Position numbers and translations under genes: made by a program
The notes under the pieces: model-generated
Seen by the model: the letters and a program-made list of their open reading frames with translations, nothing else
Told to the model about the DNA's origin: nothing
The model's database searches: none
Assembly (NCBI GenBank): GCA_018015315.1
Contig: GCA_018015315.1_3629.1
Source of the DNA: a phage
Strand: one strand, 5' to 3'
Length of the DNA stretch: 64,000 nucleotides
Part shown: one piece after another, positions 6,655 through 60,853 of the stretch
Numbering within the stretch: position 1 is the stretch's first letter
Layout: every line of letters begins with the position of its first letter

Positions 6655-6687
6655 GATTTTATCCTCTTAGTGTCTTTTGTGATTTCA

Positions 6688-6715
6688 GTATATTTTGTGT
6701 CGGGGAGTATGTCAA
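6688..6715 (-). promoter_or_regulatory. sigma70-type early promoter
   Basis: -35 TTGACA, 16-nt spacer, -10 TATACT. Confidence 0.55.
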
Positions 6716-32729: not shown

Positions 32730-32742
32730 CACGTTTTTGATG

Positions 32743-32771
32743 TTGACATCTATTGAAACAATTGATACGAT
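32743..32771 (+). promoter_or_regulatory. sigma70-type promoter, rightward arm of divergent pair
   Basis: -35 TTGACA, 17-nt spacer, -10 TACGAT; reads into HNH-like gene. Confidence 0.5.
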
Positions 32772-32802
32772 TTCTTCACTTACAGAGCACGAGAGACAAC
32801 TC

Positions 32803-33780
32803 ATGAATCTTGAAAAATATTATACACCAGAAGAGTTAGAGCGCCTGCTCAAAAAATATAGACGCAAACAGAATAATGCACGGAAACGAGATATAGAGTT
32901 CGACCTGTCATGGGAAGAATACCTCCTATTTGGTAAAAAACTTTTAGGAGATGGAGTATGCGACTATACCCTTATACCTTTTGACATGCACACAGATGAA
33001 AACGGGCTGGGAAATCCTTTCTACCCATCTCTGGAGCGGATAGATGATGAAGGTCCTTATGCGGTTGATAACTGTTGTGTAGTGGGATTGAGATGCAACT
33101 CTCTAAAGGACTGTCTGGTAGATAAAAAGACTGCAGTCTTGATTAAAGACGAAACTGATCGAAAAATTGTCCAGCAGATGATGCTCCACCTGAGCGAAGA
33201 GCGTATGGAGAAATTGAAAGGTGATTATACTTTTGAAGATTTCATCTTGCAATATGGAACGGAAGAGGATAAACTAGCACTCTTTGACGAAGAAGAGGAG
33301 GAAGATATGCTACCGATGTCTAAAGTTACTTATCGTGCACCCAAGAAGCACATTTCCGACATTGTAAACGAGCCTATCACAGAAGAGATTGAAGAAATGA
33401 CGCAACAGGTGCATGAAGAGGAAAAAGAGACTCAGGAGGTCGAAGAGGAGCTTACAGAAGAGGTTCCTGCACTACCTGATGATGTTGAGATTGCCAAAGC
33501 TTACACTTTCTATTGTCAAACGTTCTACGATGTAGGTATGAAAGTTGATCTGTCGTTCAGCCAATTTAAGAGTTCGTATATTCGCAAATGCTGTGCTTTA
33601 ACTGGTGAACGTCTTGGAGCTGGACTTAAACCCCTGTTGGTGACCGACTGGAATAAAGGTTTCACTAAAGGAAACTTTATGGTAGTATCTCCAATTATGG
33701 AGAAAGCTATGACAGATCTTATGAAGACCACCCGCATGACAATGACCGAGTTGGCAGGTATTTTCAAACACGTTAAATAA
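32803..33780 (+). CDS. HNH-endonuclease-like protein with two tandem degenerate HNH-type domains
   Basis: SLERIDDEGPYAVDNCCVVGLRCNSLK and weaker repeat VTDWNKGFTKGNFMVVSPIMEK; acidic linker carries internal SD+ATG (MSKVTYRA) inside the 29-bp inverted repeat; start set to MNLEKYY because track start overlaps promoter. Confidence 0.55.
   Translation: MNLEKYYTPEELERLLKKYRRKQNNARKRDIEFDLSWEEYLLFGKKLLGDGVCDYTLIPFDMHTDENGLGNPFYPSLERIDDEGPYAVDNCCVVGLRCNSLKDCLVDKKTAVLIKDETDRKIVQQMMLHLSEERMEKLKGDYTFEDFILQYGTEEDKLALFDEEEEEDMLPMSKVTYRAPKKHISDIVNEPITEEIEEMTQQVHEEEKETQEVEEELTEEVPALPDDVEIAKAYTFYCQTFYDVGMKVDLSFSQFKSSYIRKCCALTGERLGAGLKPLLVTDWNKGFTKGNFMVVSPIMEKAMTDLMKTTRMTMTELAGIFKHVK
33311..33339. repeat. 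29-bp perfect inverted repeat, right copy
   Basis: TACCGATGTCTAAAGTTACTTATCGTGCA inside HNH-like ORF, encoding LPMSKVTYRA after SD-like GAGGAGGAAGA. Confidence 0.85.
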
Positions 33781-33813
33781 TGACAGGGGCCAATGGCCCC
33801 TTCTGGAGTTTTA

Positions 33814-35274
33814 ATGGATATCAGAAGTTCAGAAATCATTGCCTCACAAAAAGATGATGCCCTGAGAATGTTGCAGGCTGCACGTATGTATCTCCTTGAA
33901 AAGCTGCCGTTTTATGGCACACTGCTGTCAGGATTGCAGTTCGTAGAAAACCATACATGGTGCTCCACCATGGCAACCGACCATAAACGCATCTATTACA
34001 GTCCTGAGTTCATTATGGGGTTGGCTGATGAACGTAAGGCTATTCTTAAGGCTTCTCTAACTGACGAGCAGTTTGAGATGGCTGAGGTTTTCTATTCCCC
34101 CAAATCTGTGAAAGAGGTGGCCTTTCTTCTGTCGCATGAGGTGGGGCATATTATCTGTGATCACCTGGTCCGTGGTAAAAGCTTTGAGCCGGAACTGTTC
34201 AATATTGCTTGTGATCACGTTATCAACACAGGACTTGTGGTTGACTTTAGCAAGCCTCCTTGTGTTTTCTTCCCGAAGGGGAAAAGCACTACGTTCGTGA
34301 AAGGTAAGCCTTTTGGCTTCTTAGCCAGCTGCTACTGCGATATGAAGTTTCATGGATGGATTGCTGAGAACGTTTATGCAGTTCTTGATAAGCAAAGAGA
34401 TCAGAATAACGGTAAAAGTAAGAACGGTAAAGGTGAGAACTCTCAAGGTGATAAGCGACAAACAGATGATCACATGAGTGGGAACGGTGGCACCAGTGAT
34501 GATCTTGGAAAAGCTATAGGGTATGATCAGCCACAACCTGTAATCAGCCAATCTGATAAAGATCAGGCCATGCAGGACTCTGGTGATATGCTGGAGGCAG
34601 CAATGCAAGCGTCCGGAGGCCGTTGCCCCGAGGCGGTGCGTGAGTTTGTCAAGAACAGAGGTAAGCCTGTAATCAACTATATAGACATCATTAAGCAACG
34701 CATGTTGTCTAAACGAAAGGCTGAACTGACCTACAGAAAACCTGGTCGCCGATCTGGGTCTTTGACCAGCACAATGCGAAAAGTTGGGGCTATAAACAAG
34801 AACCAGCACGTTATTGTTCCTGGTCGTAATCCGGAAAACACTATAGATATTGTGGTGGCTTTAGACGTTTCTGGCTCGATCTCTCAAAGAACTTTAAAGA
34901 AAATGTTCAATGAAATCACCGGATTGTGCAATCTGTATAAAGAGTTTAAGGTTACAATGTTCTGTTGGTCAACTGAGGTTGGAGAGGTTAAAGTATACAC
35001 TCGCGGCAACATAGACGAGATGATTAACTATGAGGTCCACTCAACATGGGGCACAACAGCTGCTTGCGTGTTCGAGTATCTGGATGCCAACATACCGAAT
35101 GCAAAAGATGTCATCGTCCTGACCGACCTATACTTTGAGCATAACTTTGAACAAAAGGTTGTTGACAACAAGTGGAAAAAGTACGATACTTTATGGGTTC
35201 TAACCGAAGGGTATAATAAAAATTATATCCCGAGCTTTGGGAAAACTGTGGAATTAATCGAGTACGCTAAGTAA
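33814..35274 (+). CDS. metallopeptidase-like + von Willebrand factor A domain protein
   Basis: HExxH motif LSHEVGHIICDH; MIDAS motif VVALDVSGSIS; start MDIRSSEII with GGAG SD. Confidence 0.75.
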   Translation: MDIRSSEIIASQKDDALRMLQAARMYLLEKLPFYGTLLSGLQFVENHTWCSTMATDHKRIYYSPEFIMGLADERKAILKASLTDEQFEMAEVFYSPKSVKEVAFLLSHEVGHIICDHLVRGKSFEPELFNIACDHVINTGLVVDFSKPPCVFFPKGKSTTFVKGKPFGFLASCYCDMKFHGWIAENVYAVLDKQRDQNNGKSKNGKGENSQGDKRQTDDHMSGNGGTSDDLGKAIGYDQPQPVISQSDKDQAMQDSGDMLEAAMQASGGRCPEAVREFVKNRGKPVINYIDIIKQRMLSKRKAELTYRKPGRRSGSLTSTMRKVGAINKNQHVIVPGRNPENTIDIVVALDVSGSISQRTLKKMFNEITGLCNLYKEFKVTMFCWSTEVGEVKVYTRGNIDEMINYEVHSTWGTTAACVFEYLDANIPNAKDVIVLTDLYFEHNFEQKVVDNKWKKYDTLWVLTEGYNKNYIPSFGKTVELIEYAK

Positions 35275-35289
35275 GAGAGGAGGTTATTT

Positions 35290-35553
35290 ATGGCAACAGA
35301 GTTAAAATTTGCATCAAACCGTAAAACTAAGAAGTATCTGTCCTCAGTAGCTCCAGGCACTGTGGTGATGTTTGTTGATGAACTTGGGGATGTGAATACA
35401 GCACTTGTTGTAAAATCACATCCTGCAAACATATATGTTGGGGTATTTGACCTGTTCAGAAAGGTGTTTGTAGAACTACCTCACAGTTTGGTTGTTACAG
35501 AAATGGATGCCTGCATAGAAATTCTTGGCGAAGTTATGGTGGAGGAACAATAA
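35290..35553 (+). CDS. paralog 1 of tandem small-gene array (87 aa)
   Basis: Shares GTVV...FDL...LP...VTE.D..I.ILGE pattern with next three genes; SD GAGGAGG. Confidence 0.55.
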   Translation: MATELKFASNRKTKKYLSSVAPGTVVMFVDELGDVNTALVVKSHPANIYVGVFDLFRKVFVELPHSLVVTEMDACIEILGEVMVEEQ

Positions 35554-35819
35554 TGGCTACTAGCATTGTATTCAATTCTAAGGTGAAGAACAAAAAGCGT
35601 GCAGACAGTTTTCCGTGTGGGACCGTGGTAAGTTGCGACGGAGACGGCATTCAAAACATAGTTATGATTGTCAAAACAGGAGAACATTGTGTGTGGGGGT
35701 TCGATTTAGAAAATAATGAGTTGTACGATCTGCCGCCAAACATGAAAGTTACAGAGCTTGACACCAAAATTACCATCCTTGGAGAGGCAAGCTATTCAAA
35801 AGAAGGAGGAGAACAATGA
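35553..35819 (+). CDS. paralog 2 of tandem small-gene array (88 aa)
   Basis: Pattern as paralog 1; start overlaps previous stop. Confidence 0.55.
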   Translation: MATSIVFNSKVKNKKRADSFPCGTVVSCDGDGIQNIVMIVKTGEHCVWGFDLENNELYDLPPNMKVTELDTKITILGEASYSKEGGEQ

Positions 35820-36079
35820 CCACAAAAATCACTATCGCAGAACCGAAAGCTAACACTCAACCTATCGAAAAGTTTAAGTGCGGTGAGGTGGTAACATTCA
35901 CACCAGATAATGAAGATGCTAAGATTTTCGCAATGGTCACAGCTGAGTGGATGTGTGACAACACCACACAGGTTCTGCGTTTTGACACCTATCTTACCGA
36001 CGAAATCAGGAACGACAAGATCGTGACTGGTGTGGATACTGAGATTGTTTTCTACAAGAGCTTTTTAGAGGGTTTCTGA
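35816..36079 (+). CDS. paralog 3 of tandem small-gene array (87 aa)
   Basis: Pattern as paralog 1; 4-nt overlap. Confidence 0.55.
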   Translation: MTTKITIAEPKANTQPIEKFKCGEVVTFTPDNEDAKIFAMVTAEWMCDNTTQVLRFDTYLTDEIRNDKIVTGVDTEIVFYKSFLEGF

Positions 36080-36080
36080 T

Positions 36081-36314
36081 ATGGCAAAAATTCGTAAATT
36101 ATCCAGCAATCAGGTTGTGAAAGACTTTGAATCTGGAGAGATTCTGTATGTTCGTGATGCAGATGACGAATGTGAAGATCTTGTTATGTTGGTGGGGCAC
36201 GCTGAGGACGGATGCATCCAAGCTGTTTTTCTTGAAACAGCTATGGTGCACTGGATAGAGCTGGACCTGAAAGCACGAAAACCTAAAGCAGAAATCCTGA
36301 TTTACGAAGATTAA
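36081..36314 (+). CDS. paralog 4 of tandem small-gene array (77 aa, more divergent)
   Basis: Weaker match to the paralog pattern. Confidence 0.5.
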   Translation: MAKIRKLSSNQVVKDFESGEILYVRDADDECEDLVMLVGHAEDGCIQAVFLETAMVHWIELDLKARKPKAEILIYED

Positions 36315-36330: not shown

Positions 36331-36780
36331 GTGTTGAGCAAACGTGAATGCGACAGCATTAGCCTGAATTCTTATAAGAAACAATGGTTTGGAGTGGAAG
36401 TTTGCCGACTGCGGCTAGGCTCCTACCTGAACTTCGTTTATTATGAAAGCGATAGTCGTATCGTTTCTTATGAAGTGTTCTACACTAAGAACACCTTCGA
36501 ACTGCGCCGTAAAGTGGATGGTGGGAGAACTACCCCCCAGAATAATTGGGAAACTATCCTACCTACAGATGTTATAGGAAGTCCACTGAATGTATCTGAA
36601 GATGAAAATCTTATGGTTCATGCTATGATGGGACTTGACAGCTTAGAGCTGGCGATCTATGATATGTCCATCGAAGCAGTTAAGCTGGACTACATCGAAA
36701 ACACTTTAGAGGAAGGTATCAAGAAGTTTCTCAGTGAGAAATTAAAAGACCACTTTCATAAGGAGCTATACCTGTTATGA
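36331..36780 (+). CDS. hypothetical protein (149 aa)
   Basis: ORF track; non-ATG start likely. Confidence 0.5.
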   Translation: MLSKRECDSISLNSYKKQWFGVEVCRLRLGSYLNFVYYESDSRIVSYEVFYTKNTFELRRKVDGGRTTPQNNWETILPTDVIGSPLNVSEDENLMVHAMMGLDSLELAIYDMSIEAVKLDYIENTLEEGIKKFLSEKLKDHFHKELYLL

Positions 36781-37022
36781 AGACCCGTAAAGAACGTAAC
36801 AAAATTTTACCTGGAGCTCTAGAACACCTGATGAAGTGCAGATCTATTTGGCACTCTGCCAAGGAAGGGCAGAAGGTGGTTGTGGTTAGTGACAATACCA
36901 ACCCGTTTGGAGATTATACCACTATGATGGCCCCGTATGTCCGTGATGGTGTTGTGGAAGTGGTCCCTTACAACGGTCTGCATGAACGGCACTTTGAAAG
37001 CACTTTGCTAGTGGAGCTATAG
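36777..37022 (+). CDS. hypothetical protein (81 aa)
   Basis: ORF track; 4-nt overlap. Confidence 0.45.
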   Translation: MKTRKERNKILPGALEHLMKCRSIWHSAKEGQKVVVVSDNTNPFGDYTTMMAPYVRDGVVEVVPYNGLHERHFESTLLVEL

Positions 37023-38618: not shown

Positions 38619-38999
38619 ATGTGCAAGTGTAAATCATATAATTGGAAAGTGAAAGGTGCCAAGCATCCAAATGTTATCGTTGATGTGCCTAAAAAGCTCC
38701 GTGACGGCAAAAAACGTGTGTGCCTTGATAAGTGCATGGCTAAACCTATCATGAGTCTATGGGCGGCAGGATTGAAAACTCTAAACTGCTGCTGTGGTCA
38801 TAACAAAGATGTTCCAAGCATCATTATCCCAGAAGATGCAGATCCTAAAGCTTATGCCAAAATACTGACCCGCTATCCCAGCACCTTCCTGATCGGAAAA
38901 TGGTGTCACGATGAACTTCAATGGTGGATAGCCTATGGTAGTATAGGCACTACTTTTGGCTTCCCAGCTTTGTCAGAGCGCTATGTCAAAGTGTCATAA
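38619..38999 (+). CDS. Cys-rich protein (126 aa)
   Basis: ORF track; Cys clusters CKCKS, CLDKC, NCCCGH. Confidence 0.5.
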   Translation: MCKCKSYNWKVKGAKHPNVIVDVPKKLRDGKKRVCLDKCMAKPIMSLWAAGLKTLNCCCGHNKDVPSIIIPEDADPKAYAKILTRYPSTFLIGKWCHDELQWWIAYGSIGTTFGFPALSERYVKVS

Positions 39000-58855: not shown

Positions 58856-59292
58856 TAATACCTCCAGACATCAACAACGATAGAATCTTTCATGTCGAAC
58901 ATAAAGACCCCTTTATCACCTTTCGCCCAAATCTGGTTGTTCCAGAACACACCAGCGGTGAGCCCGTTCAGACCTTCGAAAATGACAATATCTCCACGCT
59001 GAACCTGTTTAGGAGTATCCAGCCGAGTCATAAAGAGATCAAAAATAGTAGGCAGGTGTGTGGTTTTGAAACGGAGCATGCACCATCTTTTGCTTTCCAA
59101 CTCTGTTTTATACGTTCCTTCGAAGTTAGAAAGAAAATCTGTTCCGTACTGGGCATCAACACACTTAGCTGCAAAGGTGCAACAATCGTGGAATCCCCAT
59201 TCAAAAGGTATGGTGGCCTCTTCGTCAAACACTTTCCACAATCTTTCTTGCCAATCCACTAAACGAGGGTGTGTGCTCATTAAACCTCCCAA
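58855..59292 (-). CDS. hypothetical tail-module protein, possible NlpC/P60-like peptidase (145 aa)
   Basis: FEWGFHDCCTFAAKCV and GDIVIF motifs; weak. Confidence 0.45.
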   Translation of the reverse strand: MGGLMSTHPRLVDWQERLWKVFDEEATIPFEWGFHDCCTFAAKCVDAQYGTDFLSNFEGTYKTELESKRWCMLRFKTTHLPTIFDLFMTRLDTPKQVQRGDIVIFEGLNGLTAGVFWNNQIWAKGDKGVFMFDMKDSIVVDVWRY

Positions 59293-59846
59293 ATGATCGG
59301 GCGGCTCGCCACCTGATCCACATATTTAAAAAATCTGTCATTATCGTTTCTTGAGCTGTGGCTTTCCTCCGTGTACCTATAAGGAAAACCTCTTAACCAA
59401 CTGTTGAAGATGGAAGAGATGGATATGGACAAAGCACTATTCTCACCTGTCTGAATAGCCATATCTGTTATAAGGCCGTCAAACAAGCCATTAGTTGTAA
59501 CAGGCAGACCATTCTCCATAGCGGTAATGTACAACGTGGCACGACAACCAGAATACTCCGTCTTCAGCAGATCACCAACATACTTAGGATCAAACCCGTT
59601 CAATGTTGCTACCACAGATCCGAAGTTGGTGGCATCTTTCTCAGACACAGCAGTTAATGTTGCTGATCCACCTATCCCTATAAAATGTTGCCCCTCAATT
59701 ACTACAACACCAGTGCCTGAGCACACCCTGACAGTTCCTGTCGGTAGCTCCAGCTTTGCAGCAATTAAGATCTCAACACCATCAAGCTCCAGCTTTTCAA
59801 GAAATAAATTATCTAATGGCGCTCTGATCATCTTAGAAATCCTCAA
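59280..59846 (-). CDS. hypothetical tail-module protein (188 aa)
   Basis: ORF track. Confidence 0.5.
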   Translation of the reverse strand: MRISKMIRAPLDNLFLEKLELDGVEILIAAKLELPTGTVRVCSGTGVVVIEGQHFIGIGGSATLTAVSEKDATNFGSVVATLNGFDPKYVGDLLKTEYSGCRATLYITAMENGLPVTTNGLFDGLITDMAIQTGENSALSISISSIFNSWLRGFPYRYTEESHSSRNDNDRFFKYVDQVASRPIIWEV

Positions 59847-60423
59847 AGAAGTTGATAACTATATTATCACCTTTTTGCATAGCATCGACTTTTTGCTTAA
59901 TTTTATAAATATCTCTGATATGAAACCTACCCTTTGGGGATTGAGTTATTATCTTCATAGTATCCCCTGCGGCAATAGGTTTCCTAAGTCTTGGAGATAT
60001 GCTTATAACAGCAGCCCCAACACCATCGCTGCGTACTGGAGCTGTTACTACTTTCAACTCATCGTTCACAGATATTTTATCACCAGCTCTGGCTATGTCT
60101 CTGTTTGGCTCCCACCCGACCGTCTTCAAAAAATCGTCGTTACCAGTAGGCCCAAGAGCGATTGGCTCATTAGCTGTTACCGAGTGACCGTAAGTTTTAA
60201 TGAGAAATATGTTCCCATCTTTATATACCTGATCAACAAAGCTCTTAAGCTCTAACAACTGTGACTCGCTGATATTGGAAACCGTCAAAGTGCCTTTCCA
60301 GTTAGGTGTGGCATAGGTTACTTTTTGCGTTTTACCTGTAAACGGACTTTTAAACGTAACAATATCTGCTAGCAGCTCCAATCTAATATCTGGAAGGTAT
60401 CTAGGCCTTTCCCATAAAAACAT
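59833..60423 (-). CDS. hypothetical tail-module protein (196 aa)
   Basis: ORF track. Confidence 0.5.
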   Translation of the reverse strand: MFLWERPRYLPDIRLELLADIVTFKSPFTGKTQKVTYATPNWKGTLTVSNISESQLLELKSFVDQVYKDGNIFLIKTYGHSVTANEPIALGPTGNDDFLKTVGWEPNRDIARAGDKISVNDELKVVTAPVRSDGVGAAVISISPRLRKPIAAGDTMKIITQSPKGRFHIRDIYKIKQKVDAMQKGDNIVINFFEDF

Positions 60424-60482
60424 TGTGCCTCCAGGTTAAACAATCATGATAGTTATTTTACCAGATTTTAAGTTAATACGCA

Positions 60483-60515
60483 ATATAAACAAAAAGCCCC
60501 CGCCGAAGCGAGGGC
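60483..60515 (-). terminator. intrinsic terminator, UUCG-loop family
   Basis: GCCCUCGC-UUCG-GCGGGGGC then UUUUUGUUUAU. Confidence 0.6.
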
Positions 60516-60520
60516 AATAC

Positions 60521-60853
60521 TTAAAATACTTCCAAGGTAGACGCTGGAGGGTCGAACATGTTCAATTTCATCGACTCTACAACTTTTCCGCTTTTTGAGA
60601 TAATGTTTTCTGCACCTTCGTCCAGAGTTAAAACATTAACATAAAACAATTCGCTTTTCTCACAAACAGGATAGACAACCATGTTGCCAAACTCATCTTC
60701 TGCCTCATAGGTATCTCCCGTCTCTGTGTAAACAAAGCCAGCAACCTCTACAAGAAGTGTGTTTTGCAACACCTCATTTTCGTAAAAGCCGATTTCATCC
60801 ATGAAACCGTTAAAGTCCTCCCTGTCAGTGAACCCGAGGGTAAAGGTATTCAT
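60521..60853 (-). CDS. hypothetical tail-module protein (110 aa)
   Basis: ORF track; terminator 60483-60515 follows. Confidence 0.5.
   Translation of the reverse strand: MNTFTLGFTDREDFNGFMDEIGFYENEVLQNTLLVEVAGFVYTETGDTYEAEDEFGNMVVYPVCEKSELFYVNVLTLDEGAENIISKSGKVVESMKLNMFDPPASTLEVF

Follow-up and report, generated by a model that had tools for sequence, protein, structure and literature searches.

Do four small, consecutive open reading frames in the early region of an E. coli phage form an array of paralogous genes, and if so, what might such an array contribute to infection? The DNA analyzed here, hereafter the window, is a stretch of 64,000 nucleotides (GenBank assembly GCA_018015315.1, contig GCA_018015315.1_3629.1), and the region that holds the four ORFs is that of a Vequintavirus (rV5/Murica-like; an E. 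coli myovirus) with 97-98% DNA identity to its closest relatives A51.2, LL12, and Murica. A preliminary description made from the sequence alone had proposed a head-to-tail array of four diverging paralogues that share a spaced motif, and had compared it with the host-interaction or anti-defense factors of phage early regions. We refer to the four ORFs as O1 to O4, to their downstream neighbors as O5 and O6, and to the loci used for comparison by L numbers.

Array genes and operon context

The features of the locus, in order along the window, are as follows.

32743-32771, + strand: putative early sigma-70 promoter (TTGACA-17-TACGAT, extended -10 TG)
32803-33780, + strand: Srd-like protein ("anti-sigma factor" in annotations), first gene of the operon
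33793-35274, + strand: DUF2201_N metallopeptidase plus VWA-like protein (PF13203, E=5e-28; PF09967, E=6e-11), directly 5' of the array
35290-35553, + strand: O1, "type A", 87 aa, pI 5.0; first gene of the slot-1 cassette; ATG start, Shine-Dalgarno (SD) site GAGGAGG at 35277-35283
35553-35819, + strand: O2, "type B", 88 aa, pI 4.8; second gene of the cassette; ATG start, SD site GGAGG at 35541-35545
35816-36079, + strand: O3, remote paralogue, 87 aa, pI 4.5; ATG start; most conserved member
36081-36314, + strand: O4, probable and most remote paralogue, 77 aa, pI 4.6; ATG start
36331-36780, + strand: O5, conserved downstream neighbor, 149 aa, phrog_6790
36777-37022: O6, 81 aa, phrog_4868; 49% identical orthologue in L022

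Coordinates, ATG starts, and junctions agree with the preliminary description of four consecutive plus-strand ORFs of 77-88 aa that abut or overlap one another, the junctions being TAATG between O1 and O2 (1-nt overlap), ATGA between O2 and O3 (4-nt overlap), and TGAtATG between O3 and O4 (1-nt gap). The SD sites (in order GAGGAGG, GGAGG, AGGAGG, and GAGGG) lie 6-9 nt 5' of the starts, and those of O2 to O4 sit within the final codons of the preceding gene, which implies translational coupling. Since the SD sequence is thus dual-coded in the gene ends, the products carry Glu/Gly-rich C-terminal tails (VEEQ, EGGEQ, LEGF). All four ORFs are annotated as coding sequences in more than 100 GenBank genomes; in LL12 they are CPT_LL12_013 to 016, hypothetical proteins with a ribosome-binding site annotated for each. 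Taken together, the SD sites, the stop/start overlaps, dN/dS values of 0.02-0.22, and conservation in 118 genomes show that the four ORFs are real genes.

The array is part of a plus-strand operon inside a mostly minus-strand region, with the order promoter-like site, Srd-like gene, DUF2201_N metallopeptidase/VWA gene, O1-O4, O5, O6 and so on. The promoter-like site maps by coordinates to promoter P11, annotated at rV5 6685-6713 upstream of gp011, and no plus-strand terminator-like site was found between it and position 38931; an Rfam scan of the region gave no family matches. The Srd-like protein matches phrog_3118, phrog_4592 ("decoy of host sigma70"), and phrog_1400 ("Srd anti-sigma factor"), is annotated accordingly in LL12, and corresponds to rV5 gp11, which was called an Srd homologue in the rV5 paper (PMC3606486). 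The placement of the array in an early region is thereby upheld, as it follows an Srd-like gene whose rV5 orthologue carries the annotated sigma-70 promoter P11, and these sequence features suggest that the array is expressed early from that promoter. Orthologues of O5 directly follow the metallopeptidase gene in Seunavirus (E=8e-11), Avunavirus (E=1e-7), and Mydovirus (E=9e-6; all by phmmer), so that the array has the appearance of an insertion between these two genes.

Two further observations concern the neighbors. In RefSeq/PHROG-derived annotations the Srd-like protein and the DUF2201/VWA metallopeptidase are both labeled "HNH endonuclease" and O5 is labeled "tail protein"; these look like propagated mis-annotations, as Pfam gives DUF2201_N and VWA-like domains for the second gene, and nothing supports a tail role for O5. 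The affected stretch is 32737-35274 of the window and gp011-gp013 of rV5 (NC_011041.1; L006 288-2718), where a frameshift or sequencing error divides the metallopeptidase gene into gp012 and gp013. Additionally, in Avunavirus, Seunavirus, and Mydovirus an ORF of 85-87 aa lies between the Srd-like and metallopeptidase genes (L002 3192-3455, L003 3178-3435, L004 3197-3457); the corresponding position of the window is empty. Their scores against the family profiles are at chance level (E of 1.5-4), and they are candidates for the same fold by size and position.

One protein family from old duplications

Direct comparison by BLASTP aligned O1 with O2 (40% identity, E=1e-12) and gave no alignment of any other pair at E<=100. 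Against PHROGs, O1 and O2 both match phrog_10698 over their full length (E=7.6e-43 and 2.2e-40, respectively), while O3 matches phrog_12861 and O4 matches phrog_12046, also at full length. The phrog_10698 model is further matched by the type C (5e-48) and type D (1.8e-9) proteins of related phages and by the sequence P0030 (7e-28); it reaches O3 at only E=0.078 and does not match O4. The spaced motif that the preliminary description attributed to all four genes is literally present in O1 and O2, but it is confined to them and absent from O3 and O4. A repeat scan found no DNA-level repeats in the array region, indicating that the duplications are old.

Profile comparisons reached further than pairwise ones. 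With hhalign, an O1/O2 alignment matched O3 at P=1.7e-4 over 74 collinear columns and O4 more weakly, at P=0.019. The key profile was an HMM whose input was restricted to O1/O2-type sequences (A, B, C, and D, including the divergent alleles A' and B', together with P0030), from which O3 and O4 were excluded. Among 702 six-frame ORFs this HMM gave 23.1 bits to O3 (E=2e-6) and 13.6 bits to O4 (E=0.002), with alignments of near full length (residues 8-73 in the case of O4), and none of 10,000 composition-preserving shuffles of either protein matched its score. The similarity is therefore more than compositional, the alternative that the preliminary description had itself named. When applied to 931 ORFs comprising the window and the rest of LL12, the HMM returned exactly O1-O4, with O3 and O4 ranking third and fourth (E=3e-6 and 0.003) and the next match at E=0.19. 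Furthermore, type D provides a reciprocal link, being the best match of the O4 HMM (E=0.009) and also matching the O3 HMM (E=0.007).

Structure prediction, proposed in the preliminary description as a check, gave a concordant result. The AlphaFold model of O1, made from an alignment of O1/O2 types only, is all-beta with a pLDDT of 80.8, and that of O4, made from O4 orthologues only, is all-beta with a pLDDT of 65.7 and less than 50 in its C-terminal 14 residues. The strand/non-strand state of these independent models agrees at 59 of 76 aligned positions, more than for any of the 76 circular shifts, so that they share strand order. In Foldseek searches against BFVD the list of matches to the O4 model was weak; at least eight of its entries were common to the O1 list, including the C-type orthologue of phage Pr121LW.

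Profile scores, shuffles, genome-wide specificity, and matching AlphaFold strand patterns thus bear out the head-to-tail array of paralogues and show that O1-O4 constitute one protein family that arose via old tandem duplications of a single gene. Three separate database families of hypothetical proteins are merged here into one family of remote homologues, in which the homology of O3 to O1/O2 is secure and that of O4 is probable. It is very improbable that only O1 and O2 are paralogous and that O3 and O4 are unrelated adjacent ORFans made alike by composition and a beta-rich pattern: such a reading could appeal to the single BLASTP alignment, the three PHROG families, the low hhalign probabilities for O4 (2.4% and 1.3%), and its profile score of just 13.6 bits, but it has to contend with the ranking of both proteins by a profile free of them and the clear gap that follows, with the shuffles, with the control neighbor O6, whose score against the O1/O2 profile is no better than chance (equaled or exceeded by 1463 of 3000 shuffles), with the reciprocal links through type D, and with the in-register strand patterns and common BFVD entries of the O1 and O4 models. 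For O3 this reading is largely refuted.

O6 was also considered as a fifth member of the array and rejected; its score against the O3 profile is likewise at chance, and that against the O4 profile is weak (reached by 43 of 3000 shuffles).

Exchangeable first slot, constrained pair, and copy-number history

A tblastn search of 50,697 phage genomes found the array genes only in 118 Vequintavirus records. O3 is present in all 118 at >=93% identity and O4 in all 118 at >=88%. O1 and O2 always occur together, in 44 of the 118 genomes, and in the other 74, rV5 itself included, they are replaced by a single type C gene whose product is 39-42% identical to A and to B.

35300-35815, + strand: O1+O2 exchangeable cassette; in rV5-type genomes one 85-aa "type C" gene (rV5 gp014)

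Window and rV5 DNA are ~97% identical up to ~35306 and again from 35817, and between these points ~45% identical or gapped, which places the cassette edges at the slot-1 start codon and the O3 start codon. Both haplotypes occur within one species, as LL12 and Pr121LW are both classified as "V. murica", and this indicates exchange by recombination. The alleles of the first slot (A+B, C, and D) are about 30-40% identical to one another.

The remaining two genes behave differently from this cassette. In a divergent Vequintavirus lineage (L012-L014) the first-slot proteins A' and B' are 56% and 66% identical to those of the window, and the neighboring Srd, metallopeptidase, and O5 proteins of the L014 lineage are 58%, 82%, and 60% identical, respectively. 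For the same lineage O3 retains 97.7% amino acid identity (dN/dS 0.024) and O4 93.5% (dN/dS 0.06); both are under strong purifying selection. The dN/dS of O1 is ~0.2 (0.22), which gives no signal of positive selection, and dS is saturated for O2; IMG/VR holds only 2 related loci, too few for a population dN/dS. The dN/dS comparison that the preliminary description had suggested thus gives no sign of diversifying selection. The description's picture of a diversifying array applies, in the population sense, to the O1+O2 block, swapped in 74 of 118 genomes, but not to O3 and O4; few genes at the locus are as well conserved as these two. Instead of an arms race, the 40% divergence that separates the alleles may record the recombinational exchange of long-standing lineages.

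Members of the family are found almost exclusively in Vequintavirus-like phages, and a lineage has 0, 1, 3, or 4 of them. rV5-type genomes have three copies (C-O3-O4) and Murica-type genomes four (A-B-O3-O4). A sister lineage, L022, whose metallopeptidase is 62% identical, has a single member, of type D, flanked by the metallopeptidase gene and O5; metagenomic contigs, of which the longest reach 120-145 kb, yield about 55 type D clusters. In L019 (metallopeptidase 46% and Srd 40% identical) the only member is a homologue of O3, 77% identical, which lies upstream of the Srd gene and three genes away from the metallopeptidase gene, and a related contig, L025, has a C-like copy at another place in the early region. 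In Avunavirus, Seunavirus, Mydovirus, and Certrevirus no family member was detected beside the metallopeptidase gene. A HMMER scan of 1.84 billion representative proteins yielded nine at E<=1e-3, all from the O1-O4 family; a word-indexed protein search with the single O1 sequence recovered only near-identical proteins, and queries with alignments reached B', D, and P0030. The simplest history is that one ancestral gene after the metallopeptidase gene gave rise to three or four copies in Vequintavirus, that the first slot then split into several alleles, and that O3 and O4 became fixed under strong constraint.

Some of these sequences merit comment in their own right. L019 (a Logan SRR25667319 contig of 137 kb) and L022 apparently represent undescribed genus-level Vequintavirinae-like lineages, and among the 50,697 phage genomes none has a metallopeptidase more than 47% identical to that of L019. 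Two adjacent 142-aa genes lie just 5' of the O3 homologue in L019. On L022, a lytic-type Vequintavirinae-like contig (ENA scaffold YOKO23-1...scaffold_84, 124 kb), a TnpB-like gene of 379 aa with OrfB_IS605 and Cas12f1-like_TNB Pfam matches (L022 119-1258) is situated directly upstream of the Srd-like gene. Sixteen GenBank records of the MG0656xx series, titled "UNVERIFIED: Campylobacter phage" with C. jejuni as host (for example L011, MG065662.1), share 97% identity with rV5-like phages of E. coli over the array region and are probably E. coli phage contaminants or records with mislabeled hosts.

Predicted fold and candidate roles

The O1 model has the predicted fold of an SH3/Tudor/KOW-like small beta-barrel with two extra N-terminal strands, and it fits the SH3-like class, whose mark is a strongly bent antiparallel barrel of five strands superposable on known members. 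The same fold class includes the Tudor domains of SMN and TDRD3, the KOW domains of Spt5/NusG, the C-terminal domain of ribosomal protein L2, domain I of EF-P/eIF5A, and the C-terminal RNAP-binding Tudor domain of UvrD/PcrA; O1 differs from these in its two additional strands, and at 7-20% sequence identity, with no sequence-level relationship found, the resemblance is one of fold class and derives from a predicted model. In BFVD the O1 model matched O1- and C-type orthologues first, followed by dozens of uncharacterized phage proteins of 70-90 aa with E of 1e-4 to 1e-2, including proteins from N4 (gp21), the G7C-like phage EP335 (three proteins), Salmonella phage 7-11 (two), Serratia phage Hera, Vibrio phage Thalassa, and others. 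This is the commonest small beta-barrel and is also found in RNA- and DNA-binding proteins.

All four proteins are acidic (pI 4.5-5.0, net charge -4 to -8 at pH 7), with a slightly basic N-terminal strand (3-5 Lys/Arg in the first 20 residues) and no signal peptide, and at this size, with no match to a catalytic family, they are probably too small to be enzymes. Neither a conserved set of aromatic residues of the Tudor-cage type nor a conserved basic patch is evident in the family alignment. Searches of Pfam, NCBIfam, PADLOC, and PDB sequences gave no meaningful functional match for the family proteins, the precomputed Pfam annotation is empty for all family members, and a literature search on rV5/Vequintavirus early-gene function or anti-defense returned nothing specific. 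Weak matches to aSelB_III, Kelch_HCF, and 2pcn were all below their cut-offs and are regarded as chance. The DUF1883 (PF08980) label that a type D protein (P0052) carries in nr was not reproduced by hmmscan of 19 members at E<=10, and no relevant function was found in the DUF1883 literature.

On the basis of their size, charge, fold, and predicted co-expression with an Srd-like protein early in infection, we propose that the O1-O4 products are early host-takeover accessory proteins. Each would bind stoichiometrically to another macromolecule, most likely a host protein, and would not be an enzyme; the negative charge of the proteins makes protein targets likelier than nucleic acids. The conserved O3/O4 pair would address conserved targets, and the first slot, which holds A+B, C, or D, would confer specificity as a module passed between otherwise nearly identical genomes by recombination at gene boundaries, whose exchange possibly tracks strain-variable host factors. 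The descriptive part of this account, namely one family of real genes in an early operon that encode acidic small barrels and form a copy-number series, is held with high confidence. That the products bind a host protein during takeover is a serious prospect that falls short of being probable, and the account as a whole, family description and binder reading combined, is the best overall explanation we can offer, put forward tentatively and at somewhat less than an even chance. A more detailed version is improbable: in it, slot 1 would be a cassette of Tudor-like decoys or inhibitors with alleles directed against strain-variable host factors such as immune systems, while O3 and O4, together with the Srd-like protein, would bind to a conserved hub, for instance the beta lobe of RNA polymerase, by mimicking the Tudor domains of UvrD/Mfd/CarD.

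Small acidic early proteins, sharp allelic cassettes, and variation in copy number and position are typical of known anti-defense loci, and each of these traits is seen here: the proteins are small, acidic, and early, a sharply bounded cassette is swapped between genomes otherwise 97% identical, copy number differs between lineages, and L019 and L025 carry members at other early-region positions. The array might on these grounds serve counter-defense, each paralogue inhibiting a different immune system and the swappable A+B/C/D slot answering strain-specific defenses. We consider this unlikely for the array as a whole, because none of the proteins resembles a characterized inhibitor in Pfam, NCBIfam, PDB sequences, or the PADLOC set of defense proteins, O1 lacks a positive-selection signal, and the near invariance of O3 and O4 under very strong purifying selection is unlike that of arms-race genes. 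Conservation of the latter pair points to a conserved target, which makes anti-defense a poor fit for O3/O4; for the variable slot such a role is possible. Additionally, work with the BASEL collection found Vequintavirinae to be exceptionally sensitive to restriction-modification and broadly sensitive to several Abi systems (PMC8594841), which indicates that the array does not give effective general protection against restriction.

The Lys/Arg residues of the N-terminal strand and the Srd-like gene at the head of the operon could instead suggest small barrels that bind nucleic acids and modulate mRNA stability, translation, or transcription elongation, in the manner of GoF/MotB.1/Frd.2 or of KOW/L2-type domains. 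T4 Srd stimulates RNase E. Also in favor is that T4 possesses a sequence-divergent family of small-barrel early proteins (PMC12152347). A net charge of -4 to -8 is unfavorable for general nucleic-acid binding, however, and with no conserved basic patch visible in the alignment we judge this role decidedly unlikely.

The array, and likewise the lone type D gene, directly follows the metallopeptidase/VWA gene, and a MoxR ATPase gene lies nearby on the opposite strand in LL12; this might point to accessory subunits, adaptors, or substrates of a MoxR ATPase plus VWA/DUF2201 metallopeptidase module. Avunavirus, Seunavirus, Mydovirus, and Certrevirus keep the metallopeptidase with no detectable family member, however, and the members in L019 and L025 lie away from it, which makes an obligate partnership unlikely and this explanation as such distinctly improbable.

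Relative to known systems, the host-takeover reading places the array in a familiar class. The SPO1 host-takeover module and the T5 pre-early genes are likewise clusters of small early genes on host-type promoters, and many products of this type bind and inhibit host proteins; those clusters differ in that they are not paralogue arrays and contain no member related to O1-O4. Of published systems, the LSm-like GoF/MotB.1/Frd.2 family of T4 (Kim et al., 2025; PMC12152347) comes closest in kind; its members are sequence-dissimilar, small-barrel, early, non-essential proteins recognized as a family only by structure prediction. The array genes themselves are those of phrog_10698, phrog_12861, and phrog_12046 (rV5 gp014, gp015, and gp016, "unknown function"), which PHROGs lists as three unrelated families, whereas here they form one family with a multi-allelic cassette in its first slot.

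rV5-like phages rank among the most frequently isolated E. coli phages (PMC8594841) and have been used in O157 typing and biocontrol (PMC3606486), and almost all of their early region is annotated as "hypothetical". Beyond merging three database families, the analysis tells the constrained O3/O4 pair apart from the swappable A+B versus C cassette and provides a short list for studies of takeover and host range, for which natural allelic variants exist in the BASEL collection, such as MaxTheCat with A+B and AlexBoehm with C. No new principle is involved, as tandem ORFan paralogues are common in phage early regions; the array is a better-defined example of the small ORFan families of early phage regions, and the locus is a reasonable but ordinary candidate for host-takeover factors.

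Lastly, the LL12 record (MH491969.1) annotates its terminase large subunit and DNA polymerase A genes as intron-interrupted (58981-60847 and 125854-128907; L027 and L028) and two adjacent Sir2-like genes at 68065-69553.
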